Shown piece after piece: positions 4,211-64,000 of a stretch of DNA of 64,000 nt. Made by a program: the position numbers and the translations under genes. This DNA comes from Psammoneis japonica (lineage: Eukaryota): contig QPGO01000098.1 in the NCBI GenBank assembly GCA_008632985.1, positions 235,958 to 299,957 of the forward strand, given 5' to 3'. How positions within the stretch are numbered: the stretch's first letter is position 1; the number at the start of each line of letters is the position of its first letter. The notes below the pieces were generated by a model. That model was not told where the DNA came from, did not search any database, and saw nothing but the letters and a program-made list of their open reading frames with translations.

Positions 4211-4730
4211 CAGGAGAGAAAAGACCCCGAAAAAGCAGTGCCACATTTACTCGGAATCCTAGTCACGTTAACACCCGGACGACAACCCGGGGAACTCGCA
4301 TCTGTTAATTCAATTAAAACGTCACACTTTTCTTTTCACACGAAATGTAACGGAACAAGAAGGGGAGAGCGCATTGTTCAGTCATCCAAGTACAAGTAGA
4401 TGCCATGATAAGTGCGTCGGACAGTTCGACTCGGTGCTGCACATTCTGGAGCTAGAGAAGCATCGTAATGTGGAGCGACGTATTCATAGAAAGTAAAGTG
4501 ATCCTACAGTTCACATCTAGGTCCACACGTAAGACTCCAAGTCTCTCGTGGCTGTTTCTCTACTCGTGTGCTCTTTCCTCCCAACCAAACAGGAAACTGA
4601 TTTGTGTGCAAGCAACGTGCGCGCCACTAACTAGGAATTTCTTCTTTCTGTGGAGTGCAGGGACCTTCTGAGTTCACCGGCTCCAAGAACTCGCTCAGCC
4701 AATGCCTCACAAAGACTGACCTTGGTTGCT

Positions 4731-5810
4731 TCAAGGCTCCCACCTCGCTGCATTACAAGCAGCCTTGTGGTTCTTCCAATCCGCTGCAAAGCAATCATTG
4801 TTGCAGTGCCAAGCAATTTTGCAATGCGAACACACCATCATGTCCTCTGCTTCCTTGCCACAATGGTGACACTGAGGAACAACCTCTTGGAGTAGGTTGC
4901 ACACCCTCTCCGCCTCCTCTGAAACATCACCCACAGGACCACGCGACCCATTTCGTTGGACACCCTTCATGACAATGTCACCACCAGCGGCAAGGATAGA
5001 CAGACGGTTGTCACCATACATCGGGTCAGACAAAAATGGCATCACACCGGTCCCGTTCCATTGGATGATTGGGTGGTTCGGAAATCGCTTCAGGCTAGCG
5101 AGAATGTTGGGAATGCCTCCACAACAACGGATTTCAGATGGCAAGGATGACATTTCTTCAATGCCTTTTTTCGCAGTCATCCTTGCCATTGAATCCATCA
5201 AGGACAGCGCCAAGTTGCCAAAGACCTCCTGCTCGCGTTGCAGGCTTTGAGCCCGTGAATGCTTGAGGATGTCCACAACCATTGCGACGCCACCGGCTTC
5301 GCGCACAGCTTCGAAGTGATTGTCTTCAGACAAGTCACATGACAGTGTAAGCGAGTGAAAAACAAGGCTGCCTGCTGCTTTAGCTTCTTCATCTTGGTGC
5401 TTTTGCTGCGCGACAAGTGTGTTCATGGAAGTAATCACAATTGGGATTCCACCGCTCTCAACAATGGCCAATCTGTTGTGTTTGTTGCCGCTGCTGTTGA
5501 CATTCGCTGCAGTGTAAAGCAGACTGCAACACAGTCTCTGAATGCATGCTAGCTCGGGATTCTCACGCATGAGAGTGATGATGGTGCTCATTCCACCAGC
5601 TCGAACAAAAGCTTCGGTTCGCGCTTTGTGCTCGTCGTCGCAATCGTCGACAACAAGTTCCCCAAGTCGATGCAAAGCATTGCAGGCCCCTTTTGCGTCA
5701 TCTTCAGACACGCATTTCCCAGGCAAGGAAGCGACGAGCGCTTGAATCATTGTCTCAAGAGGCTGTGACCCTCCTTTGACTTGCACGCGTCTGCTTTTTT
5801 TCTTTCCCAT
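4731..5810 (-). CDS. Armadillo-repeat protein with C-terminal MYND zinc finger (open but mutated, possibly non-functional)
   Basis: 359-aa ORF; repeated AIVESGGIP/AVREAGGV/CCGGIP ARM-like motifs; CHHCGK...CSHCKIAWHCNNDC...DWKNHKAAC MYND finger, with the usual YC reading HC. Confidence 0.8.
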   Translation of the reverse strand: MGKKKSRRVQVKGGSQPLETMIQALVASLPGKCVSEDDAKGACNALHRLGELVVDDCDDEHKARTEAFVRAGGMSTIITLMRENPELACIQRLCCSLLYTAANVNSSGNKHNRLAIVESGGIPIVITSMNTLVAQQKHQDEEAKAAGSLVFHSLTLSCDLSEDNHFEAVREAGGVAMVVDILKHSRAQSLQREQEVFGNLALSLMDSMARMTAKKGIEEMSSLPSEIRCCGGIPNILASLKRFPNHPIIQWNGTGVMPFLSDPMYGDNRLSILAAGGDIVMKGVQRNGSRGPVGDVSEEAERVCNLLQEVVPQCHHCGKEAEDMMVCSHCKIAWHCNNDCFAADWKNHKAACNAARWEP

Positions 5811-6559
5811 CGTTGATGCTTGATGTGCATTGCGTTGTCATTGTGCGACTTGCTGCTCCGCGGTCATCATCACTTGCGGCGCACGCGCCGCTTCACCTGC
5901 CGCTTGCAGCGCGCGACGTAGCGCGCGTGCGTCCAGTTGGGCGCATGTGCGTCTTGGCGCGTTTTTCCTCGTGTCCGCACAACGGCAAGACCATGGAAGA
6001 AGCGATTTTGCGCGTGCGTGCGTGGTGCATGCCCAGCCAGAAGCAATGGAAGCAGTCACTTGCTTTGTCACCAGAGATCATTGTGCGGCAGAACACAAAC
6101 AATGCCCAATGGAATCTGTTGTCCCTGTTGGAAGATGGAATTTGGAGTGACCAATTGACTTTTGAGTGGCTGGGCTTTCAGAAGAGATTGGGTTGCATTG
6201 AAGCATCATGTTCGGGGTGCATTTTGAGGATTGTGCACAGGCACTGGGAGCAACCCCAGGAAAAATGAAGAGCAAGGCTGACTCAGTGGCCTCACAGGTC
6301 ACATTTGGAGCAAGCATTCAAGCAAAAGAAAAGACTGTCTGGCTCTGGTGTCCTGCACGCTGCCCACCACTTTCTGGTGCGCGCCCATGGAGAAACAAAA
6401 AACTCCAAAATCTCTCATTCCTCTTGCTCAATGCTTCCCCCAGGATGCACCAGCTGCATCTCAAAAGCAATCTCCATGCAAGCAACATCAACGCTGCTGC
6501 ATCATCTGGTGCAGATGATGGACAAACCTTTTCCTGTCGTGTGTCTTCACACCCTCTGA

Positions 6560-9149: not shown

Positions 9150-9790
9150 CCAGAAGAGAGTGAACACTCAACTGAGAGGGATTTGGCAGAGGTTGTTTCC
9201 TGGTCAGACGCTGATCAAGGTGTCGAGGTTGACGACCATGGTGCTCCGCTTTTATGGAACAAGCTTTTTCGTTTCAAATTCTGGAAACGGCAGTGGATGA
9301 TGTCTCGGCACACCCTCATGTCTTGCCGCCTCCACTTCTTGTGGAGGGTGTTCAAGCCTTCATGCCAGAATCACTGACCGAAACGCACTTTTGGCTCAAA
9401 TGCTCTCTTGTTCGTGATGGTCTCGGCCTGATGAGATTGCTCCGATCGGTGCGTGGTTCGACAAAACACGGTTCTTTTGCCATTGAGACAACCGAGGGCT
9501 ACGTGTTTGGCTCGTTTACTTCTTTTCCATGATGGCGACTGTCCAATGGACGGTGTTTTGGAAGTGGAGAATCATTTTTGTGGAGACTGAGAAAATCCCG
9601 TCTAACTGGTCTCTTTCGCCAACCCAAATGGCTGCCATGGAGGGTGAGCTGGAGCAGGTCTTTCCATGCGCGCAGTCAAACAATGCCGTTCAGTGCTGTA
9701 GCCGAGATGACATCAATCTCAAAGTTTGCACCATGACACCATGGACACAGTTTCAAAGGCAGAAAGAGGAGGAGCTTTCAATGCAACGGA
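9150..9790 (+). pseudogene. TLDc-domain gene remnant, copy B
   Basis: HVLPPPLL...FWLKCSLVRDGLGL...IETTEGYVFGSFTSFP; disrupted frame. Confidence 0.7.
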
Positions 9791-10174
9791 ACAAGGAGGG
9801 GAGAGCGCACAATTCAGCCATCCAAGGACAAGCAGATGCCACAACAAGTGTGTCGGACATTTCGTCTCGGTGCCACATGTTCTGGAGCTAGAGAAGCATC
9901 GTGACATGGAGCGACGTATTCATGGAAAGTAAAGTGATCCTGCAGTTCACATCTGGGCATGCACGTAAGACTCCAAGTCTCTCGTGGCTGTTCTCTGCTC
10001 ATGCTCCTGCCAAACCGGAAGCGGATTTGTGCACAAGCAACGTGCGCGCCGCTGCACCAGGAATTTCTCCTTTCATGGAGTGCAGGGACCTTCTGAGTTC
10101 ACCGGCTCCAAGCCAGTGAAATGATTCTCGAGACCCTGCCCCCCAATTCACATTGAAGTCACTCAGTCAATGCC

Positions 10175-11272
10175 TCACAAAGACCAACCTTGGTTGCTTC
10201 GAGGCCTCCACCTCGCCGCATTACAAGCAGCCTTGTGGTTCGTCCAATCCGCTGCAATGCAACCGTCATTGCAGTGCCAAGCAATGTTGCAACGCGCACA
10301 CACCATCATGTCCTCGGATTCCCTCCCACAATGACGGCACTGAGGAACAACCTCTTGCAGCAGGCAGCACACCATCGCCGCCTCCTCTGAAACATTGCCG
10401 ATGGGATTGCACGACCCATTTCCTTGGACACCCTTCATGACAATGTCACCACCAGTGGCAAGGACAGATGGACGGTTGTCATCATACACCGGGCAAGACA
10501 AAAGTGGCATCATCCTGGTCCCGGTCCATTGGATGATTGGGTGGTTCGGAAATCACTTCAGGCTGTCGAGAATGTTTGGAATGCCTCCACAACAAAGGAT
10601 TTCAGATGACAAGGATGACATTTCTTCAATGCCTTTTTCCAAAGCCATCCTTGCCATTGACTCCATCAAGAACAGCGCCCATTTGCAAAGGTCCTCATGA
10701 CGGCTTTGCAGGCTTGGAGCCCGTGAATGCTTGAGGACATCCACAACCATTGCGACGCCACCGGCTTCGCGCACAGCTTCGAAGTGACCATCTTCAGACA
10801 AGCCATCCAATGGGCCAAGTGAGAAATAAAAGCAGCCTGCCGCGATTTTTTTGTCATCTTGGTGCTTTTTCAGTGCGACAAGTGTGTTCACGGAAGCAAC
10901 CATGATTGGGATTCCACCGCTCTCAACAATGGCCAATTTGTGTTTGTTGCCGCTGCTGTTGACATTCGCCACAGTGTCAAGCAGAATGCAACACAGACTC
11001 TGAATGTACGCCAGCTCGTGATTCTCATGCATGGGAGCAATGATGGTGCTTGTTCCGCCAGCTCGAACAAAGGCTTCGGTGCAGCCACGCACTTTGTGCA
11101 CGTCGTCGCACTTGACAAGCATGCCAAGACGCTGCAAAGCATCGAAGGCCCCGTTTGCATCATTTTCAGATGCGCATTTCCCAGGCAAGGAAGCGACGAG
11201 AGCTTGAATCGTCTCAATGAGAGGCTGTGACCCTCCTTTGACTCGCATGCGTCGGCTTTTCTTTCCCATCAT
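10175..11272 (-). pseudogene. ARM/MYND paralog, interrupted
   Basis: ORFs 10553-11272 and 10175-10513 are in frame and separated by TGA where copy A has CGA (Arg); highly similar to 4731-5810. Confidence 0.85.
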
Positions 11273-12487
11273 GGATGCTTGCTTGATGAATGCGTTGTCA
11301 TTGTGCGACTGCTGACATTGCCGTGCGGTGCTGCCATTGCCGCACGCACAACATACGTGACGGACGGACGTGCGCCCAGTTGGGCGTCTGTCTTGGAGCG
11401 TCTTTCCTCAAGTCTTAAGACCCGTCGTGCTCGTGGTGGAGGGGTGCAATTCGGGGTGTAATTTTGGGGTCCCCTCAAAAAAAAATTACAGCCAACAAAT
11501 GGGCTGCCAGAGGCATGTGTTTTTTTTTCCTGTGAAAAATTCTGGGAGCCTGCAATTTTCCGCACGAAAACAGACTCAACTCATCATCATCCATGACGGC
11601 AGAAACATCCGAGCATCGAACAACAATGACAACCAACAATCAACAACGAACTTCAGCCAATGAGAGATGTAAAAAATTGTTGCTGGGGAGCTGTTGTGAT
11701 GTGCTCACGAAGGAAAGAACGGCAAAAAATGATGAGATGGAGTCAACGGACAACAAAATGATGACAACTTCATGTCTTTTCTGAAGAAAAACATGTCATG
11801 TGGTGGCTGAAACCTCAGCTGTGGACACAACAATTGCACACATCATCAACCACATCATTGCAAATCAACTGGACTTGTCAGAACAGCAATTTGACATGCG
11901 CGAGGTCACAGCGGAGCCGCCGAACGCCACTGTGTTTTGTTGCAGTCATTTGAATCTTCAACCTCCTCGCGTGCAGATGAGTTGATTAAATTGGAGATGT
12001 GGAGTTGTTCCTGCTCAGTCATCATCAATTTTTCAGGAGCACATGTTCAATGCAGATGTCAATTCTTGCAGAATTGCAGTTGTCAAATTTCAGACTCTCG
12101 CAAGGACCAAGGCGAGCGCACGGCTGCACGAAGTTGTCAGTCCCGTCTGCTCGTGACTCAGTGCATTTCTGTGGCAAAAATTGTGCAGGAATTCGAAGAT
12201 GACAAAAACGGCCAGATGATTTCCACCAACTGCAATGTGAGCTGCACCTGATGTACATTCTTTGTTCGTCAACACTTGAGTCAACTGTTTCAGGCGTCAC
12301 ATGCAGCTGCTTTGATGAGCTGGAATTTCTCCGAACGAACGACGAATCGTGCGGAGCAACAATGAACAAAGCAACAAAACAACAAACCCAGCATGTCATT
12401 TCACTGTTAGACCTGCACAAGCCCTCAGCACATGGCCCTACTCTCAACGGAGATGTTGTCTCCCAGCTGATTCGAACATGCACTTTG

Positions 12488-53202: not shown

Positions 53203-54729
53203 TTATCGAATCGCCTGTCCAAAGGGAATGTTGTCAAGCACAGATTCTTGCCTCTTAAAAGGTGGTGGAGTCCCAAAGACGTTTCGGAAAACCAACCTCT
53301 CATCGTTCGTCCCGCATACAACTGCCGACCCGTCGTTGCTTTGGTCCAAGTTGAGGACTCTGCAGCCCGAAGATTCCAAGCTATCCTTCCATTGGAGTTC
53401 GGGGTGTGTGTAGGACCACAGCGTGAGCTCGTTGGCTCCCCAACTATGCGACGAAAGTAATTCCGGTCGATGTTTGGACCACAGGAGGTCTGTGACTTGC
53501 GATTTTGTTTCAACAGAATGCTGCACTTCTCCGTTATTGGTGTTCCACAACTTGATGGTTCCATCCGTGGTTCCGGAGCCACTTGCGAGCATGCGTGGTC
53601 GAAATGGACACCAAGCCAAGGCCTTGACGGCTGCCTTGTGGACGTCAAGGGTGAGTCGAGGAGAGGTGGAAGGAATTGCTTCAAAGTACGCCGCGCTTGA
53701 CTTTTTCGCGTCCCATAAACAAATCCGATTGTCGTTGCCTCCGCTAGCCAACGTGTCTCCGGCGGCGTTCCATTTTAACCCGCAAACCTCTTGCAAATGC
53801 GCTTCGCACCGTGCGACAATGTGGTACCTCATCCTGACGTCATGGTGAATAATGGAAGAATCACGAGATCCCGAAGTCATGATATTCTTGTTCCATGCAA
53901 TGGAACCAACACGAGCAAGGTGACCAGACATGGTTCGGATCCTTCTGCCGGCTTGAACATCCCACAGTTCCGTATTACCCGCCTGTGTGGCGATTGCAAG
54001 AACCCTGTCATTGTGATAGTGCGCCCACGATACACAAGAAACTCCTCCTTCGTATGGCGCCACATTCATTAAATGACTGACTGCACTCTTGTGGAAATCG
54101 TATAAATATACGTTCCCTTGGAGTGCAACGGCGAGAACATCGGAAGAGTTCCAACTCAGCGTATCCACGTAAAAGTCGTCGGCCAAAGCGGGAGCGTCAA
54201 GGATTCGGAAGGGTGTCTTCGATATACGTTGTCTACGTTCGGTAGAGACGGATTCAAAAGCGGCGCCATTCCCGCGCAAATTGATGTTATCCAATCGTTG
54301 GAGAACGTGGAGCGTGTCGTGCGACGAAGGATCATTCACATACGGCGAAACCGTCCGTTTATTCTCGCCGAAGTGAAGAATGCGTTTCGTGTCTCCGTCG
54401 TCCGATAATTCCTCCAATGGAATGTCGAGTATCGCTGCTTTCATTCGACGCTTATAGTCGGACTGAAGTTTGGCAGCGGCCTTATCGGATTCGGACACGT
54501 CGATACACTCTTGGCTAGGCTTCTTGGAGGCACGGATACTCGAGTTGCAACTTTCGAGGTTCATTCGTGCACGATTGGGGATGAATCGATCTCCCGGAGT
54601 CGTAACAATGCGGCGACGCTTCGCGCTGCTTCTCGGAGGAGTCATCGCAAACCGAGGAGCCTTGGACGTGTTGGGATAGCAACGGGACGGGGTTGCCGGC
54701 GTATTACGGAGTGGTGTCATGGTATTCAT
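53203..54729 (-). CDS. CDC20: CDC20/Fizzy-family APC/C activator
   Basis: C-box DRFIPNR, RILDAP, WD40 repeats (QEVCGLKW, LASGGNDN, AAVKALAWCP), C-terminal IR tail. Confidence 0.93.
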   Translation of the reverse strand: MNTMTPLRNTPATPSRCYPNTSKAPRFAMTPPRSSAKRRRIVTTPGDRFIPNRARMNLESCNSSIRASKKPSQECIDVSESDKAAAKLQSDYKRRMKAAILDIPLEELSDDGDTKRILHFGENKRTVSPYVNDPSSHDTLHVLQRLDNINLRGNGAAFESVSTERRQRISKTPFRILDAPALADDFYVDTLSWNSSDVLAVALQGNVYLYDFHKSAVSHLMNVAPYEGGVSCVSWAHYHNDRVLAIATQAGNTELWDVQAGRRIRTMSGHLARVGSIAWNKNIMTSGSRDSSIIHHDVRMRYHIVARCEAHLQEVCGLKWNAAGDTLASGGNDNRICLWDAKKSSAAYFEAIPSTSPRLTLDVHKAAVKALAWCPFRPRMLASGSGTTDGTIKLWNTNNGEVQHSVETKSQVTDLLWSKHRPELLSSHSWGANELTLWSYTHPELQWKDSLESSGCRVLNLDQSNDGSAVVCGTNDERLVFRNVFGTPPPFKRQESVLDNIPFGQAIR

Positions 54730-55099
54730 GGTGGGGGCTTTCGATGTGCGTCTTCACTGAGAACTGTGATGGTAATGGGTGTCGTGGGGAGCACAATCAT
54801 GTTTCGCTCCGTTGTTGTGTGATTGTTTCTCGACCGTATTGAGTTAGTTTTTTATTATTTATACCTTCATTAAATTTTTATATAATCGCCAATGATCTTC
54901 ATCTGGAATGTTTCCTCAAACCTGTTAAATACCGGGACTGGCTCACGTCATCGTGGTATAAGAAGGCTTGAAACAGACAAATTCGATTATATGAGCCTGC
55001 ATATAACTATTTTTATCTTGCCATTTCTCGCCCATCAGCCCCACCCAGCAAGCAAAATTGAAAATCCGACATCCACATCCGAACGGTAAAGTACGATTC

Positions 55100-56290
55100 C
55101 ACCCAAGCATGCTAAAAGACCTATCTGAAACAAACACTCATCAGGTTCAGCGAAAAGTATCCAGCACCAATCGGAGTGTCTTGATCTTGAATGAAAGTGA
55201 TGCAAAGGATGGATCCATGCGCGGGTCTCCCACAGCAGCAATAAGACTAGCAGGTCGCTGGATTTCGCGACTGTGTTCTTGTGCCGAACTATTCAGACGG
55301 CAATCGCAGAGGTCACTTTCTGGCCAAGATCCGTCCATGAAATGAGGCTTGTCGCGTGGAGTGCAACAATGAAACCTAAACCTCCCAAGCTTCCTCGTAC
55401 TAGTCCACCCGACGATGGCGGCTTGGGAGGATGGAAAGGTGTGGATGGTTCCGACCCCTTCTTGACCGAACTCAAATCTTCATCTAGAGCGCCCAAGAGT
55501 GCCAAAGCAAACGAGTTGGAAGCTGGCGGTGACGCTACCTTGTCGGCTGTAGCTTCTTCGGTTTACGGGGGTTGCGCACAGCAACCTAATTGCTGCACGA
55601 GTACATTATGCACGCCACCCATGTTATCTTCTGTATTTCAGACGTCATGAGTCACCGCATGGGCGACCGTCCCCATGGCTTGAACAGAAAAAGTCGTTGA
55701 GGCGCGTTCAAGGGCACGGGCACTCAGATATTGAGCATCCTCCACAACGCTTGGAACCTTGATGGAAGTATCCATGATCCATGACAATCTCAACCGGACA
55801 AGCCACTTTTAGGACGTACTGCCGTACCGACAAGAAGCGCTCTAGTGTAGCATATCTCCTGGTCCATTTAGGTAGTAGCTCTTGCGTCACAATAGTTTGG
55901 CATGAAGGCATTTCCCGTGGAATCTGTTGTACCTACAACGAGAGGGGATGTAGACATGCGCTCGCTTGCCCCAAGTTGATTGTCATGACGTCGTCGTCCT
56001 CGTATGTTGCACGTGTTTTGATTTTCGCCGGGTGGCTAAAATAGCAATGGGCGGCTTGGATCGTGTAGGATTCAAATATGGTACTGACTTGCGTATCATC
56101 CTTTTCGCGCTGTTGTTGCACACACATTCCAAGCAGGACAAGGTTAAGTTCTGCAATTCTTGCAATCGCAGCTTGTCCTTCCATGTGCGGATCTGGCACC
56201 TCGTTTCGGTATGAATTTTTGTGACGTGTTCAAACACGAGTATAGTAGTAACAAAAGCCCGCTGTGCACAATGAAGAAAACAAATCATTC
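55100..56290 (-). pseudogene. Possible fragmented gene of unknown function
   Basis: Consecutive minus-strand ORF pieces (55933-56199, 55708-55911, 55293-55505) with protein-like composition; no recognised domain. Confidence 0.3.
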
Positions 56291-56761
56291 TTTACATCGT
56301 CGCCTTGAGAATCAGAAGTAAGTCTCAATAACAAGTCTAGAGCTTCTAGGAGATGGAATCGAGATCTCTCTGCCACTTTAATACAATGCCTACATCAACT
56401 GCAGAAACATCATTCAGACTTCGTTTTCGTTCCTCTGCAACCATTATGATGCTTCAATCAGACACAAAAGCAAACCGTAAGGCATGAGCAGCATGATAAC
56501 AACTCACGCTTCAAAACAGCATGTTGCAACCATCATCCTCAAACGATGTCGGTCCGACTTCGTTCATACTTTTCAACTTCAAATAATCAAGGTAATGCCT
56601 CTCCCTTTTTAAAGCATACTCTCCTCTCTAGTTCTACGCTTGGCAAAGGAATACATACAACGGCATCTCACATCTCACACCATTTCTCACACCATTTTGA
56701 ATGGAAAAAAATATTCAAAATGGTGTGAGATGCGAGCGATGATGAGCGATGAGATAGAAAT

Positions 56762-59700
56762 GGACTTCGTGCCTTTCAAAATCTCGGTTGCTTTTGCGCG
56801 CAGCGCACAAACGCAGCGGAACTGAAAAAAATTCTCTGCCGAAGACTCACTCCGACATGATGGAGTGAACAGCAACAGGCACCGGCAATCCATACGGACC
56901 ATCCGAAGCTCACTGTCGCTACATAGTCTTTATAAGATGGGTGTACAACTAGGCTCTAAGCTCCTGCATACGCTGGGAGGCCTGACGTTTTCGCAAATTG
57001 TCTCGTTGTGCTGCAAGAGGGCGGAAGATGCATGCCGCGTGGGTTCGCCGGCTGTTGCTGCGGACATGTCGTGGCTTTGTCACAAACTCCGCAAAACCAC
57101 CATTGCCAATACAAGAACTTACATATCAGAATTTGTATTGAAGTTTATTGGTGAAGGTTTCGTCTTCTACGCGGCGTTTGATCCAGATTGTCGCCATCAT
57201 ACGAAAAAGGCCTCCATGCGGCGTGAATTCGATCGTCAGCACAGTGTGGCCGACTGTGTCGGTGCGAAGACTAAACTGCATCAGATCTCTCGTATTCTTC
57301 GTGAAGAAACATATCAAAATGAAGGGGAGAAGCACATCTTGAAGAGTCAGCTTGAAGATTTGGAAAAAAGGGTCAAGAAAGCAGAAAAGGCCAGTGCAGA
57401 AGCTCAGCGGCACCCAGAAATTGTTGACAGTGCGCGAAGAGCCATGGAGGATCTGGCAGTGTTACACCCTGGAAAGGTTGTGATTGTTACAGGGAAGTTT
57501 CAGGCTGACAGTTATGTTCAACATCTGTTGACAGCCAAGACCGTAGATCTGGCTGTTGGGAATGACACCGACTTCTCAATCATTTCTGGAGAGGCATGTT
57601 TGCAACTGTCAAGCTTCAGCATTGCTGTTAAACAAAACAGACGCCGCAATGAAGCAGAAATTAAAGAAGGAACAGTTGCAACTGGGTCAAGTCACACAAT
57701 CCAAAACGTCCGTGGGCATCTTGGCAACACCGTTGGGAATTACAGGGCCGCGGACCTCCCTTCACTTGATGGCATTGCTGATCTCCGAACTCGTTGTTTG
57801 ATTGCGGCATTGTTTGGAAACGACACTTTCCCAAAAGAATTAAAGAGTCTGACATTCTTTAAAAACATGGGGCCGGCTGCAGTGCGTGACATGATCCATC
57901 GCATTGGTCGAGATGCTGATGGCAATGTTCCTTTTGAGGAACTGCTGTCGGAAGCCTTGGATGCGGCAACCCGCAAGAAAGACGCTTTGAATGCAGCGGC
58001 ACAGAAAGAAGGTGCATCAGATGCTGCAGTGCTCAAACAGCAGCAGCACACAAGACTGGTCGAACTGACACGACCAGTCTTGAAAGCTCTTGTGGAAGCG
58101 ACGGCGCATGAGCCAGCGACAGTCGCTCAGTCTGGAGAAATGCTGTGCTCTGTTTGTCCACCAATCGGGCCAGTGGATCACTACATTGAAGACTTTGTCA
58201 GTGGAGATGACATTGGACTGGTCACACGTGAGTGTGAGCTTGGAACTTGTCCTGGCCCCTGTCCCTCTCACGGCCACATTTGTGTGACGGGAGAGGGCAA
58301 CCGAGAGTGTGGAAAATGCGGAAAGACGTTTTGCCTGATGTGTGCAGTTAGAAACGAAGACGAATCTGGAAGCACCGACGTGGTGTGTGTCCCTTGTCTT
58401 GGAGCCACAACAGATTCTGTAGATCCTGTGTCCAAGTTGTCAGAGAATGCATTGCGGGAGGCGCCAAGCGACAAAATTGAAGTGCCGGCTGACATGCCGA
58501 TGGCGGATCTCCAGGAACTGTACATTGGCATTGTGGAGGGCGACTCAATGGACTCTTTGGATTCAAAAATGTTGGAGCAAGTGCGGCATCCATTGTGCCA
58601 CCCAAGAGCACTAGATTCGAATGAGAAAGTGTTGGATTTTGTGGCTGATTTTGACTTTCGAGATGGCGCTCGCTTTCTTCGTGATCGTGATCTCACCTGC
58701 ATGCAGCGTTGTGGTGTCATGAACCTGTTGGCAGACCTTGTCACATTTGGGAAGAACAAAAGCTTGCCAAAGCATGCAGAGGTGCTGCCATCACTTATCT
58801 CAAAATTCGCAAGCGAAGCAAGAGTCGACAGCGGAGAGCGTTTGATGAAGCGCTGCGCATGACACGCTCTCGACCCGAAATCGCCATCAATGCTCCATGC
58901 ACATGGCAGCATGATGGAGCACAATGGAGAAATGGGCCTCACAATGCATGACAAAATGTCACCATCGTTCAAGGATGGCATGTGTGCCGTGTCATCGGCA
59001 TTTGCTGCATCCGATTTGTTGGCCAACAGATGCGAGTGTAAAGCTGGAGCGGAAAATCAGTCAGTGGTGGCAGAGGTTGGCGGGACCAGCACCGACGATG
59101 CGGGAAAGCACGTGTGTGTACACTGCCTTCCGGTGCCGTGTAAGGTCACAATTCTTTTGATGGATGGTCTGGCAGAACACGCTCTTGTTGAGTTCTCGTC
59201 GTGTTTTGGCTGTCACGAGGAAAACAGCCCAGATGTTTCGGACAAAGAAAAATTGAGAATGTCCATTCTAACGCTGATGGATGCCGCCAGTTTTAAGAGT
59301 GCCGATTCTCTCCAATCGAAGTCGCCACATGAGCTGCTGCAAGCATTCGCGGTTGGTGCAGAGAGGGGCAAGAACAAGCTGCCCGACCCACCTGACCCTG
59401 AAAAGTTGGGGCCAATGCGGAACTTCAAAAGAGTTTCACCAGAGGAAAAGGCAAAAATGGCATTGAAGATGAAAGAAGAAAAGACGGCAGCATCAACCAC
59501 GAATGTGGCAAATGAATCGGACACCTTGCCCGAACCAGATCATCTGACAACATCGCGGCTGTGCCGCACCTTCGCCAAAGTTCTCGCTGACAACAAAAGC
59601 TTGGATGAGACAATGATTGTCGGGCATCGTTTGCTTGACCTGCGTGCAAAGAAAGTTGGTGCAACTGATGCTGCCATTTCTTTGGTGGATGCTGGGCTAA

Positions 59701-61693
59701 GGCCGAGGGTCAAACAACTGTTCCAAGCAGCAAGAACCCGTGTGGATCCACGAACAAAAGCAGCAGAGGCAAAAAGGAAACTCGCAGCAGAACATTCGGA
59801 GGAATCAGAGTTGCAACTGGAGGCGCAACCAAATGATGCAACGGAATCATCAAATGAAACAAAGCGTCGGGTGTCGAAACACCCGGCATCAAAAAGCACC
59901 CGTCGCTGCTGCTGCCAAAACTGCAACAACAACATTGCCACTGGTTCCAAGATTGTGCCGCCTGTTCCTGCCAAACCACCGGTGGGAGCCAGTCGCAACA
60001 GATGGATGACGCACTTCAAGAAACGGTTTGATTGACATGAATTTCTGCGACGAATCGGCGCAGATGAAAACGACTCATGCAAAGATCTCAGGATCTGCCT
60101 CTGCCACCCAGTGGAAACGACCACAAAATCTTTCACCGTGACGACACCAGCATTGACACCAGTTTCGTCACCACAAGGCGGAGAAGACGAGTCGGACCAT
60201 GAAAATGGCGAGTTAGAAAAAGGAGACGGTGCAGATGGGGAGAAAAAACCGACAGTGTTTTCCAAACGTGCTGCATTTGAAGGCCTGCCTGTTCCTTTGG
60301 GCGCCAAAAGCAACCGATCCGAGGCATCCCCTGCCACAACTTCTAAAGGGGTGGGAGAAGTGCGACAAATGGTGCGCTTTGCTGCTTTGGATCACAAAGT
60401 TGGAGAAGAGGCTGTGCGAAATGAGTGTCTTGCTGTGCAGCAACGCACGGAAATTGAGCCGGGTGAACGAACCAAAATGATGGAAGAGGTCCATCCACAT
60501 CTCCAGCAGTCCACAGGACCAGACCAGCACATCAAGTCGCCACCAAAGAAGAAGAGAGCCACCGAAATGACCAAACCTTCAAAGGGCAAACCGTCGACTG
60601 CCACTGTTCCGCCTGCAGTTGATCCTCACCCCATTTCGACTGCTGACGTTCAAACTCGCTGTGGGTTTGGATCCTTGTTGTTGCTGCTTTGTTTCATTGC
60701 GGTTGTTTGCAATGGTGACATTTCTGCAATGATGAAAACAACAACAAGATTGAGTTGGTTTGAAGAATGGTTTTTTTTCTTTGAATTGCTTTGGGGGCGG
60801 TCTCTGCATCGCTGGGCAGATGCAGAGCGCACATGCAAAATGCACCACAAATGTCTTCAGAGAACATTCAAACAAAAGCTTGCTCTTGTTAAGTTGGCAG
60901 CAAATCGGTGGCCGCGACGCGTTTGTCACGAGGAGGACGTGTCCCTGCGCTCTGAGAAATGGAAGGAACAGCACAGAAACAAGCGTGTTGCAATGTGGGA
61001 CAATGCAAATGTTGATCTGATGGGGAAGCCTACAGATGCAGATTTGCAGCGACTCACGCACTCACTTCATTGCGGCGGGAACTTGTCAAAGGCGGCATCT
61101 TTCTGCAACTTTGTGGGTGGCTTGGCGGCTGGGAGCTTTGGCTGGGAGCGGTGTCAGACTCAGACTGTTTAGAGAAAAGTGGGCTGATGCAGCACCAAGA
61201 ACAATTTCAAAAGATGGACCCAACCTCCACGCTGTCTTTCACAAACATCTTGGACAAGGGATGCCGGTGTGTTTTGGCCGCGTGGCGAGGAGGGGGGCAG
61301 CTGCTGCTTCAGCCATTCTTTGCTAAAAGTGATGGAAAGTTTGCCAGCCGTGAGGTCCTTTTGTCAGGTGCAGTTGCCAGTGACAGGTCGGGGAATGAGC
61401 GAGCGGTCAAGCAGATGAAAATGAGCAACTTGATTGCTGGCGGCATTCATCAAAAACAAGATCTGAACAATTTTGCTGATGTCTGGATTGCCTGGGGTTT
61501 CCAATGCAATTTCATGCATGAGCCAGTGCTTTAAAACAACTGCAGCATTTTCACTTTACCTTGTAGAAGCTAGATGTTTTGTTTTGTCTTGTTGTTCTAG
61601 ACTCCACTGTGTCGTTTCTGTTGTTTCGTGCGGGGCATGCTGACAGCCAAGTAACCCGGAAAGCAACCGAGAAATTCGAAAGGCACAAAGTCC
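56762..61693 (+). mobile_element. Full-length ISL2EU-like (PHIS superfamily) DNA transposon, 4932 bp
   Basis: TIRs GGACTTCGTGCCTTTCAAAATCTCGGTTGCTTT (56762-56794) and reverse complement GGACTTTGTGCCTTTCGAATTTCTCGGTTGCTTT (61660-61693); AT on both flanks (56760-61, 61694-95); internal DDE transposase. Confidence 0.88.
56937..61534 (+). pseudogene. ~1530-codon transposon polyprotein: EXO1/XPG-like nuclease - Zn finger - SWIM - THAP - Harbinger-type DDE
   Basis: ORFs 56865-58862, 58890-60035 and 60111- share one frame, broken only by TGA at 58860 and 60033; one frameshift near 61083; motifs MGV..DMSWLCHK..AFDP..K..QAD..NDTD..FGND; CECKAG..CVH; CCCQNC..W..LRICLCH; WDNAN..KGGIFLQLCGW..GAVSD..LDKGC..DRSGNERAV. 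Confidence 0.8.
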
Positions 61694-61789
61694 ATTGCAC
61701 TCCCAACTGGGGTGTTCCTTCCCTGGCGAGACTGCGAATGGCGCCTCCAAGGGAACGAGGGGGTGCCATGTGACGTCGCCCACCCAAAC

Positions 61790-64000
61790 TCTCCATCAAC
61801 AGCACTCAGCTGAAAGCCAGTGCAAATTGGGTTGTTGGTGCACACGTGTTGGAAAACAATGACAACCTTGAAAGAAAGGGGGTCACAAAAGCAAGCCATC
61901 ATCTCTCAGCAGCGGCCACGCAAAAAACATTGAAACAGCAAGCTCAAGCTCATGGAAAGCTCATGCTGCTGCAGAGCCAATGACAAAAACAATGGCTTCA
62001 TCACAGCACAAGCCAACAAAGGGTGCTGTCTGCCAGCACGGGTTTGTTGCCAGCTTTTGAAGAGCTGCTCCTGCACACAGCCCTGTGGCAAAAAAAACAA
62101 GTCACAAAACAGCAGCGCCAGAGTGATCTCAGCATGGCACTGTGCCACATTGAAATGATGTTGCAAGCTTTGGAGTTGTTGGCACCAGGGAAGGTGGCAC
62201 ATGAGTTGTCAGCATTGGAGCAGCAGCATGGCAGGCAGGTGGCAGGTGGTGCATCAGTGCATCAGCAGGTGGCATTTGAGTGCAGCGGGTGGCACCTCAG
62301 CTTGTGGCGGCATTTGGAGCAGTCTTTGTTGGAGCAGCTGGCCAAAAGGTTTTTTGCAGTGAGGTGACAAGCTCCACTTCTTTGTCATCAACCATGCTCA
62401 CCTCACTGGCAATGAGAAAGCTGTCTGAGCACTCATCCACTGCTGGCAGGGATGTGCTCCAGGCAGCCCCGGGTGGAGCTCTCTCTGATGTGGGTCTGCA
62501 GAGAGCTCTGTGTGTGAGCTCTGCAGTTCACACACTGGGCAATGAATGTGTTTGTTTTCAAAATTTGAACAAACAACCACTCAACATTTTGGTGACATTT
62601 GTGCATGCTGGCGCACCCTGCAGACACATCAAAGAGCTGCTTCATGCAAAAACTGTGCAAAAAGTTGTTGAATGGATTGCCCAACAACTGTGCTACAAAC
62701 TGACACAAAATGTCACCAAAGTCATGCAAAAAAATGCATGTGCACAATGCACAACCTGTGGTGCACATGAAACAAAAACTCAAACTTGATTTCACTCAGT
62801 GGAGTCGCACCTTTGCCCAGCAACAGTGGCGCTGGCTGGCCCACACTTCCAGCACACCCTCCTGGGGGTGAAGCAGAAGCTCATGCAGTCAGCCAGTCAA
62901 TGTGCCACTTTGCAGTGACGCACACCAGAGACCACTTGTTGAGATGAAGCTCTGCACAAGAATGAGGACATTGCTTTCTTTTGGAGAGAACACAAAGCAC
63001 CCAAACTGCCACAGCAAAGGATGGTCACGTTGTTCAGAAGAGGATTCAAAGTTGGCACAAACTCTGAGAAAAAAACCTTGCTTCCAAGGATGGGTCTTGT
63101 CTTTAACAAAGACTGGCCAAGTTCCACATTTGCATGTGATGGAGCAAAAGCAAACAGCTCACTGCTTGCTGGCAAGTGTGGAAGAGGGGCCATTCAGGAC
63201 TTCATGCAGGTGTTTGAAACAGGGAGCCTTGGCAACATGATGAGAAGGATGTTGGAAGAAACACTGCTCTCACACAGAAGTGACAGCAAATCTTGCACAG
63301 AAATGCCAATCCTTGCAGCAAATGGATGATTGTCCAGTGGTGCCAATGGTTTGTCCAAACAAACACACACAAGCACCACAGCAGGAACAGTGCTTTCACC
63401 ACATGAAGTGAAGAAATTGAGCAGCCAGCAGGAGAAAAGGAAATTGTTGAGGGCTGATGGGTGTGGATGGAAGTTCATTGCATGGGAAACATTGTGGTTG
63501 TCAGTTGGTGTTTCTGAAGTGTGCAGAATTTGCACCAGATCCTGCACAGAAAATGCGCCCAATCTGCAAAAAATTGCCAAATGAGTTGACAAGCATGCAA
63601 ACCACAAGACATCAATGCCAGTCATTTTCCATTGGAAAGTGCTGCATTTCATCCTGAAATGAGGGGGCACCAATGTCAGAAGTGGCCAAAAGGGTTTCAG
63701 GGGACCCAGTGAAACACCATCTGAGAACACATGCAGGGGCTGTGAGTGGGCAGCTCATGTCAGGAAATGTGTGGTGCATGACCAAAACAATGCCAATGTC
63801 ACAACCCAGCAGTGTGAGGCCCCACTCAGAGCTGGAGACTGTGTGTTTTGGGACATGCAGATGTCATTTGCCGGGACAAGCTTCTGTGCCTTCTTGCATC
63901 CCATCCCTTGGTGGTGACACATGCAGTGCAGCAGGTCAAACAATTTTTTGGCACAGCACATTTCAAAAAAATCCTCTTCTCACCTTTTGCTTGCCATTTT
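61790..64000. other. TpA/CpG-depleted decayed repeat domain running off the window end
   Basis: Only about two TA seen in 2.2 kb; TG/CA-rich. Confidence 0.88.
62453..62820 (+). mobile_element. Decayed copy of the MITE-like family
   Basis: gctccaggcagccccgggtggagctctctctga..gagctctgtgtgtgagctctgcag ... accaaagtcatgcaaaaaaatgcatgtg. Confidence 0.55.

Follow-up and report, generated by a model that had tools for sequence, protein, structure and literature searches.

The DNA analysed here, referred to as the window, is a stretch of 64,000 nucleotides from Psammoneis japonica (GenBank assembly GCA_008632985.1, contig QPGO01000098.1, positions 235,958 to 299,957 of the forward strand). Near its right-hand end lies an ISL2EU-like DNA transposon, copy W, from which the dinucleotide TA (TpA) has been lost much faster than CG, and to a degree that depends on position. 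Gene-like DNA has an observed/expected (o/e) TA ratio of about 0.5–0.6 and certain blocks have a ratio near 0, so that TA loss is regional. The transposon and its two neighbours are arranged as follows.

55383–56655: TA-normal left flank, a two-copy sequence 78–87% identical to its counterpart on contig C41, with TA kept at both places
56762–61693, plus strand: ISL2EU-like DNA transposon, copy W, with ends common to copies C122, C28 and C152 and AT on both sides in all four
56760–56780, plus strand: AT target duplication (56760–61) and left terminal inverted repeat starting GG
56937–61534, plus strand: one long transposase frame, broken in W by TGA at 58860, TGA at 60033 and a 1-bp deletion near 61082
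61675–61695, minus strand: right terminal inverted repeat and AT target duplication (61694–95)
61696–64000: old block without TA and CG, common to W and C122 and extending to about C100:301200

The measured element replaces the interval 56937–61800 given in the initial annotation. Within its frame, positions 56937–57536 contain 17 TA (o/e 0.43, with CG o/e 0.86), positions 57537–59300 also contain 17 (TA 0.16, CG 0.78), and positions 59301–61534 contain only 8 (TA 0.06, CG 0.71), while the adjoining block is depleted of both steps (TA 0.01, CG 0.15). The initial annotation had described a TA-rich first ~600 bp, near absence of TA beyond ~59300 with CG still abundant, and loss of both steps only in the most decayed DNA, and in all of this it was correct. 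The rightward thinning that it reported is real as an overall fall but is not monotonic, TA coming back in the last 160 bp of W, next to the block (5 TA, o/e 0.40). By tenths of the element W has 16, 10, 3, 4, 4, 3, 1, 1, 3 and 7 TA, a distinctly uneven distribution (chi-square P=2e-5), while any unevenness of CG is not clear (P=0.054); CG o/e does not fall in step with TA. The open reading frames (ORFs) at 58890–60035, 60111–61172 and 61070–61534 encode no Tyr, as had been noted, and the first ORF encodes seven, four of them in its first 600 bp, though the TAs of the string quoted in support are not Tyr codons. A survey of 926 windows of 500 bp, taken from the window and from sequence retrieved around repeats, gave 197 that are poor in TA but have retained CG, and a single one with the opposite pattern.

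Two young sister copies of W were found, C122 (96.6% identical, 170 differences in 4926 columns) and C28 (95.8%, 205 differences), together with an old, fully depleted copy on C152 which is 79–82% identical to W and has the same ends. What had been taken as separate ORFs are pieces of a single frame, which in C28 is fully open over 1529 codons (L003:1679-6265); C28 reads CG at both positions where W has TGA. The C28 frame contains only 7 Tyr, and several residues that are invariant or nearly invariant Tyr in homologues are Cys or His in it, so that, judged from the coding sequence, TA loss damages a protein without creating stops. The deletion at 61082 of W could be an assembly error: it does not appear in the contigs of run X1 (depth 103.9, of which G 69.3 and A 34.6); run X1 is possibly from the same sample as the assembly and was not counted as independent support.

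The flanks of the three young copies differ in a way that proved informative. The TA content within 1 kb, left and right, is 49 and 1 per kb for W, 35 and 2 for C122, and 6 and 42 for C28, so that the flanks of C28 are the mirror image of those of W. C28 is inserted in the 3' end of an old element resembling a long interspersed nuclear element (LINE), identified from its frames, and its left flank is a high-copy repeat. To the right of the element, W and C122 remain about 99% identical over at least the 9.8 kb fetched, while on the other side they part exactly at the left inverted repeat (window 56762; G000:C122:181022); read depth is 57.5 on the left flank of W and 59.9 on the right flank common with C122. 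They may be alleles with a rearrangement at this transposon end, or the parting may reflect a mis-join; recombination or mis-assembly would produce the same common right end. A sharp crossover at 61344 was considered as its source and judged less likely: changes shared by W and C122 are found, interspersed with private ones, as far left as 60801 (of 10 sites changed in both copies, 8 agree), and W–C122 divergence outside pyrimidine–purine (YR) steps is similar in the element and in the common flank. An outgroup joins W with C122 at five non-YR sites and opposes this at one. No empty-site allele was found for the left flanks of W and C122 or the right flank of C28.

Of the 281 columns that vary among the three young copies, 258 are switches among TA, CG, TG and CA, leaving 23 outside YR sites in the 4926 columns. 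All three copies retain TA at 29 sites, and 59 sites are polymorphic for it, the corresponding numbers for CG being 188 and 78; another 52 sites show nothing but TG or CA, neither parent step being left. The ancestral state was read from 22 homologous proteins: at the 12 of these 52 sites that lie on Cys/His codons and are discordant for TG/CA, Tyr accounts for 129 of 246 aligned homologue residues and Arg for 4%, and Tyr is the commonest homologue residue at seven of the 12. Most such sites were therefore once TA, which changed to TG or CA.

Rates were estimated with a likelihood model conditioned on detection, and the significance of its terms was assessed by likelihood-ratio (LR) tests. The inferred ancestor contained about 160 TA (o/e 0.49), of which the three copies keep 52, 57 and 60, and about 268 CG, of which they keep 235, 236 and 229; about two thirds of TA has been lost from each copy. 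The TA/CG hazard ratios are 8.6, 8.1 and 6.3, with a CG hazard of 0.13–0.16, which upholds the earlier claim that TA conversion is faster than CG decay and puts the difference at 6–9 times per site. Background changes amount to about 0.0019 per site per copy, so that TA loss is roughly 500–600 times and CG loss 70–80 times background, these being rough figures derived from the 23 non-YR changes. Both strands are affected alike (44 TG against 51 CA products, P=0.54). The base that follows the changed A has an effect, rates at TAA, TAC, TAG and TAT standing as 1:3.8:2.1:4.4 in a fit of the 3' base only (271 sites), and 65% of surviving TAs in depleted windows are in the context YTAR, as against 18% elsewhere.

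The gradient was not present in the ancestor. Detected TA-class sites number 18, 17, 8, 13, 16, 14, 10, 13, 14 and 17 by tenth, a flat profile (P=0.68), and in all 22 homologues Tyr occurs in each fifth of the protein (22–62 per protein, against 7 in C28). An intrinsic gradient, or one held by selection on the 5' coding part, would explain why, in all three copies, TA is better preserved in the first tenth than midway along the element. Set against this are the flat ancestor and the homologue Tyr, the stops that interrupt W, and the sparing in C28 of the 3' end instead; an intrinsic gradient is thereby ruled out as the main cause, and this whole class of explanation is left with next to no probability. 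A small intrinsic end effect, due to a promoter or to transposase binding, is possible.

Comparison of W with C28 was made site by site, so that sequence context cancels. TAs present in W and lost in C28 fall 19 to the left and 1 to the right of the midpoint, while for the reverse class the division is 5:23 (P=1.2e-7). The W minus C28 difference by tenth is 7, 5, 1, 0, 1, -1, -3, -5, -5 and -8 (rho -0.98; 0 of 5000 permutations). For CG, sites private to W and to C28 divide 17:15 and 12:14 (P=0.79), and the trend by tenth is weaker (rho -0.57, P=0.09). In C28, which has its TA-rich flank at the 3' end, 12 of 12 sites in 61351–61695 are kept, and in W 6 of the 12. Loss of TA depends, as had been proposed, on position, and its tilt flips in the copy with mirrored flanks.

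A tilt of this kind might also be left by a few random regional mutation bursts, or by gene conversion between copies, the match with the flanks then being due to chance. C122 and C28 agree at six consecutive discordant sites (58174–58429) where W differs, possibly a gene-conversion tract; a search for long same-strand runs gave only a weak excess of same-strand pairs within 100 bp (254 of 432; per-copy P 0.025–0.06); and W and C122 differ despite their common right flank, just as some related transposon pairs discussed below do not follow their flanks. TpA hypermutation also affects integrated nucleocytoplasmic large DNA virus (NCLDV) and virophage DNA in Bigelowiella natans (B. natans), where it was seen to arise de novo in a silent single-copy region, and there only 11 of 15 lines were mutated (Mettrop et al., bioRxiv 10.64898/2026.01.13.699255). 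The difference between W and C28 is, however, smooth over ten bins and not patchy, and a flank effect recurs in a LINE-like family (P=0.028); we consider chance bursts or conversion improbable.

The largest spatial term in the model is a hump common to all three copies (LR 58.8, context included). A copy-specific tilt follows (LR 31.1; slopes +1.0, +0.2 and -0.59), and a common slope adds little (P=0.09). Hazards in four successive segments are 0.5, 2.3, 5.0 and 2.1 for W, 0.9, 2.4, 3.2 and 1.2 for C122 (both including the branch that these two share), and 1.6, 2.5, 2.4 and 0.55 for C28. Three zones can be distinguished.

56762–57350: TA-retaining 5' zone adjoining TA-normal DNA; of 22 sites detected (counted from 56760), 19 are kept in W, 14 in C122 and 10 in C28
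57951–60750: TA trough in all copies; of 72 sites detected, 14 are kept in W, 19 in C122 and 22 in C28, and loss in W peaks at 59251–60800
60801–61693: 3' end zone, where losses common to W and C122 are concentrated

The initial annotation had taken the gradient, strong toward the block on the right, as what a spreading chromatin mark would leave. One-way spreading from this old block into a passive element would explain why the tilt flips with the flanks, and also why the earliest shared losses adjoin the block: on the tree that joins W with C122, the hazard before their separation was 0.86 in the last 0.9 kb and at most 0.06 elsewhere (P=0.005), with CG behaving likewise (P=0.017). These early shared losses fit entry from the block first. 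The common hump is not what one-way spreading predicts, since the peak of loss lies 0.9–2.4 kb inside the element, and the 0.9 kb adjoining the block is less hit than the interior both in W (2.1 against 5.0, P=0.009) and in C122 (P=0.002), C122 having in addition the weaker tilt. In C28 the interior is hit at least as hard as the end beside the depleted flank (2.5 against 1.6, P=0.11), and a related element, L108, has TA-rich DNA on both sides and yet is TA-poor throughout. The flank-linked part of the original proposal therefore stands, but its one-way part is too simple, and a passive element invaded from one side is an improbable account.

CG loss is not wholly separate from TA loss. It shows no hump (P=0.6), but it tilts with the flanks about as much (0.45, P=0.016, or P=0.1 when slopes are left free), and CG losses found up to 200 bp from a lost TA tend to be in the same copy (288 against 201 pairs, which are not independent). 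No coupling of TA and CG losses was detected within 10 bp (17 against 16) or 25 bp (33 against 33), nor any strand link between their products. The two losses thus appear to have a regional gate in common and to arise in separate local events, and the earlier statement that TA loss is not a by-product of CG decay holds at the local level without implying full independence. In principle TA might be lost through repair of T:G mismatches, left by CG decay, by an error-prone polymerase, as happens at A:T in antibody genes with polymerase eta. The high CG loss in the same element and its like tilt would suit such a scheme, as would this tendency within 200 bp; the want of coupling at 10 or 25 bp and of a strand link, and the hump confined to TA, would not. 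Only 3 AA/AG differences occur across 812 AA/TT steps, although polymerase eta hits AA too. In B. natans, likewise, 210 of 211 changes are A:T to G:C (Mettrop et al.). A by-product of CG decay is accordingly very improbable.

Repeat-induced point mutation (RIP) of ascomycetes changes C to T at CpA, so raising TpA; it is premeiotic and needs RID/DNMT4. The main competing explanation of our data is a RIP-like response to pairing, in which the paired interior of a repeat is mutated most and its ends least, with leakage from neighbouring repeats giving the tilt. It would account directly for the hump inside the element in all copies, and suitable neighbours exist, high-copy repeats making up the left flank of C28 and part of the right block of W; RIP itself extends 930 bp or more into single-copy DNA next to a repeat and declines with distance (PMC2973834). 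A flank gradient is therefore expected of such leakage as well as of the chromatin mark that the initial annotation preferred to pairing. But the chemistry is opposite to that of RIP, and the first ~1070 bp of the block (61696–62760), which is almost TA-free, matched only W and C122, the remainder being high-copy repeat (match numbers from this search are minimum values, and old paralogues may have escaped it). Moreover the two-copy sequence to the left of W, whose copies are only 78–87% identical, keeps TA in both places, and the region mutated in B. natans is single-copy (Mettrop et al.). A pairing mechanism is on this evidence unlikely, if less so than the alternatives already considered.

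The best explanation of these results, to which we would attach a probability of about 0.62, is that a TpA mutator is confined to silent domains whose edges are set by their neighbours. Each copy would become a silent domain after insertion, and within it a TpA-specific mutator would change A:T to G:C on either strand (TA to TG or CA), favouring TAY, while a slower, separate process, probably deamination of methylated CG, would strip CG from the same domain. The mutator would be strongest inside the domain and would fade over ~0.3–1 kb at the edges, edge sparing being large beside TA-normal DNA and small beside an old depleted block; the gradient seen in the window would then be an element-centred hump tilted by its flanks. 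In such a scheme chromatin would be the gate of TA loss, and CG loss would probably represent decay of 5-methylcytosine.

Other transposon families give this model partial support. In the LINE-like family into a member of which C28 is inserted, with 40-odd listed copies, 20 were fetched and 18 passed (88% identity and reaching near the 3' end); L122, a short match and almost a duplicate of L116, was dropped, as were L128, at a contig end, and L129, with an N gap, while L118–L120 were pooled. TA-class sites in the last 300 bp are kept at 81% in the 9 units that adjoin TA-normal DNA and at 41% in the 4 that adjoin depleted DNA, with flank categories set after the data were seen (P=0.028; 0.031 with L129), while the interiors keep 26% in both groups. 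Five pairs of related DNA transposons were also compared. The two pairs that include L102 have strong opposite tilts (L094 against L102: 24 left and 1 right against 9 right), which match the flanks of the partners, the flank contrast of L102 itself being small; the pair L100/L103 is too sparse for a tilt. Copy-specific tilt is thus common, and the flank explains it in part.

Several observations weigh against the silent-domain explanation. Private TAs of W and C122 divide 12:0 and 5:12 despite the same right flank (P=1e-4), and the tilts of these two copies differ in the right half (P=0.024). The principal tilt test rests on three related copies with sites treated as independent. When flank TA is treated as a continuous variable in the LINE-like family it does not predict end protection (rho 0.15, P=0.59, 16 rows); L092 and L093 tilt differently without a matching flank contrast; and L094/L105 does not follow its flanks, L105 keeping 5 of 8 private TAs at the end adjoining the deepest block. 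As to the enzyme, nine deaminase matches look like ordinary housekeeping enzymes, the frames that were read showing no evident part for binding chromatin, and TAT is hit as often as TAC, unlike the UACG motif of native TadA.

The chemistry could be deamination of adenine by a TadA/ADAT-type enzyme, with about even odds as against a thymine lesion or a repair error; a lesion on T in RTA would look the same as a change of A. Frames resembling TadA and ADAT2, labelled from their motifs, are present. Native TadA needs UACG, while the evolved TadA-8e prefers UA (PMC12296453), and by analogy this UA preference would fit the T that precedes the changed A. As a side observation, a 491-codon frame on another contig (L136:313-1785, G000:C79) seems from its motifs to join a nucleoside-deaminase domain to one like 2-oxoglutarate/Fe(II) oxygenases. 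It is tempting, if decidedly speculative, to suggest that diatom-like algae possess a DNA adenine editor which is guided by chromatin and defends the genome separately from cytosine methylation. Such an editor would first invade a new insertion from a neighbouring silent block, then act throughout the element from inside it, sparing those ends that are in contact with active DNA; we regard this broader proposal as doubtful at present. Were it true, the shape and the age of heterochromatin domains could be read from sister copies one base at a time, and the enzyme would be an A-to-G genome editor of natural origin.

The same sequence is spared at opposite ends in different copies, which means that neither sequence nor copy number can by itself determine the target, and a transposon in mirrored neighbourhoods provides a ready-made test of how TpA hypermutation finds its target. 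The gap between TA and CG rates can serve as a clock, TA-poor but CG-rich DNA having been silenced recently and DNA without either being old. Finally, open frames that are poor in Tyr and rich in Cys/His can, in genomes of this kind, be relics of mutation.

Elsewhere in the window two host genes show the same signature.

4344–5855, minus strand: ARM/MYND gene copy 1, assigned by Pfam (TA o/e 0.27, CG o/e 0.76)
9780–11314, minus strand: ARM/MYND gene copy 2, assigned by Pfam (TA o/e 0.09, CG o/e 0.71)

Both are CG-rich yet TA-poor, as the initial annotation had recognised. Copy 1 keeps 15 TAs that read TG or CA in copy 2, and there is one such site the other way; these paralogues, which are not transposons, thus have unequal TA loss, and they adjoin depleted patches. 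An intact CDC20/Fizzy gene (53203–54753, minus strand) lies 2 kb to the left of the transposon in TA-normal surroundings. Just left of the element, at the end of the two-copy sequence that keeps TA in both copies, is a hairpin at 56667–56736 with repeated CTCACACCATTT arms (18/18 paired). For about 1 kb to the left of the old C152 copy, in CG-rich and mostly single-copy DNA, TA is low (1, 1, 4, 3 and 5 per 200 bp) and rises toward a dehydrogenase-like gene (L030:50-1000; G000:C152:131349-132300). This is possible spill beyond the element, and was not counted as such as there is no ancestor for comparison.

The transposon is ISL2EU-like by its target site and ends. The AT target duplication and the inverted repeats starting GG are found in four of four copies, the outer A and T both being present only in W. 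Its frame appears to comprise a weakly XPG/EXO1-like N-terminus, Cys-rich motifs, and THAP-like and DDE_Tnp_4-like parts. Pfam finds DDE_Tnp_4 in 10 and THAP in 1 of 14 homologues; the C28 protein itself has no match at E 0.05, and no helix-turn-helix match was obtained in the scan of this protein and the homologues. The N-terminus is weakly similar to EXO1/FEN1 (E 0.003) and to XPG-family clusters (0.91–0.93), and the motifs of this nuclease-like region (56937–58100; L003:1679-2880) are conserved in 14 full-length homologues. Short matches to the termini only of the element were found at L011–L017 and L020 (C43, C177, C203, C226, C122 and C116); on C177 and C203 they pair 1.4–1.6 kb apart, which suggests non-autonomous derivatives.

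The element shares with ISL2EU transposons, as these are outlined in PMC4482050, the AT target duplication, inverted repeats starting GG, a length of ~4.9 kb, and DDE_Tnp_4 and THAP in homologues. Unlike them it has a single frame of 1529 codons with a weakly XPG/EXO1-like N-terminus instead of a second frame for a YqaJ exonuclease, and for this reason it is not assigned as a member of ISL2EU. The listing given by Han et al. (2015, PMC4482050) places the ISL2EU group of PHIS transposons in animals only.

As in RIP, repeat DNA is here hypermutated at one dinucleotide on both strands, with border gradients of ~1 kb (PMC2973834); unlike in RIP, the change is A:T to G:C, so that TpA is lost and CpA/TpG gained. 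In a model diatom, the transposons that bear CG methylation also bear H3K9me2/3 and H3K27me3 (Hoguin et al. 2023, PMC9998398). DNMT5 methylation of this kind would explain loss of CG to TG or CA and offers histone-mark domains as a gate; the passages of that paper on DNMT5 methylation mention no effect on TA. Searches of the openly accessible literature found no paper on TpA loss in diatoms and, on the process of TpA hypermutation, only that of Mettrop et al. (bioRxiv 10.64898/2026.01.13.699255).

In the parts of that report on B. natans hypermutation, an ADAT-type deaminase is proposed without proof and targeting is only speculated on. The process in P. japonica resembles it in being a change of TA to TG or CA that is restricted to TpA, regional and common to both strands. 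The rate over background is about three orders of magnitude there and roughly 500–600-fold in this transposon, and TpA-poor genes of B. natans are enriched for DDE and reverse-transcriptase genes. CG, unlike in B. natans, decays alongside TA, with a CG/TA hazard ratio of 0.12–0.16 as compared with a C:G to T:A ratio of 0.006 in the B. natans region, which points to a second process. A 5-kb DNA transposon as target, the hump, the flank-dependent tilt and the preference for TAY belong to the present case and are not described in those parts of the report. The evidence there comes from mutation-accumulation lines, and here from comparison of copies. To this, W, C122 and C28 newly contribute the comparison of a single sequence between mirrored flanks, an ancestor with a flat TA profile, a ratio of TA to CG loss per site, and an early phase of loss beside the block.

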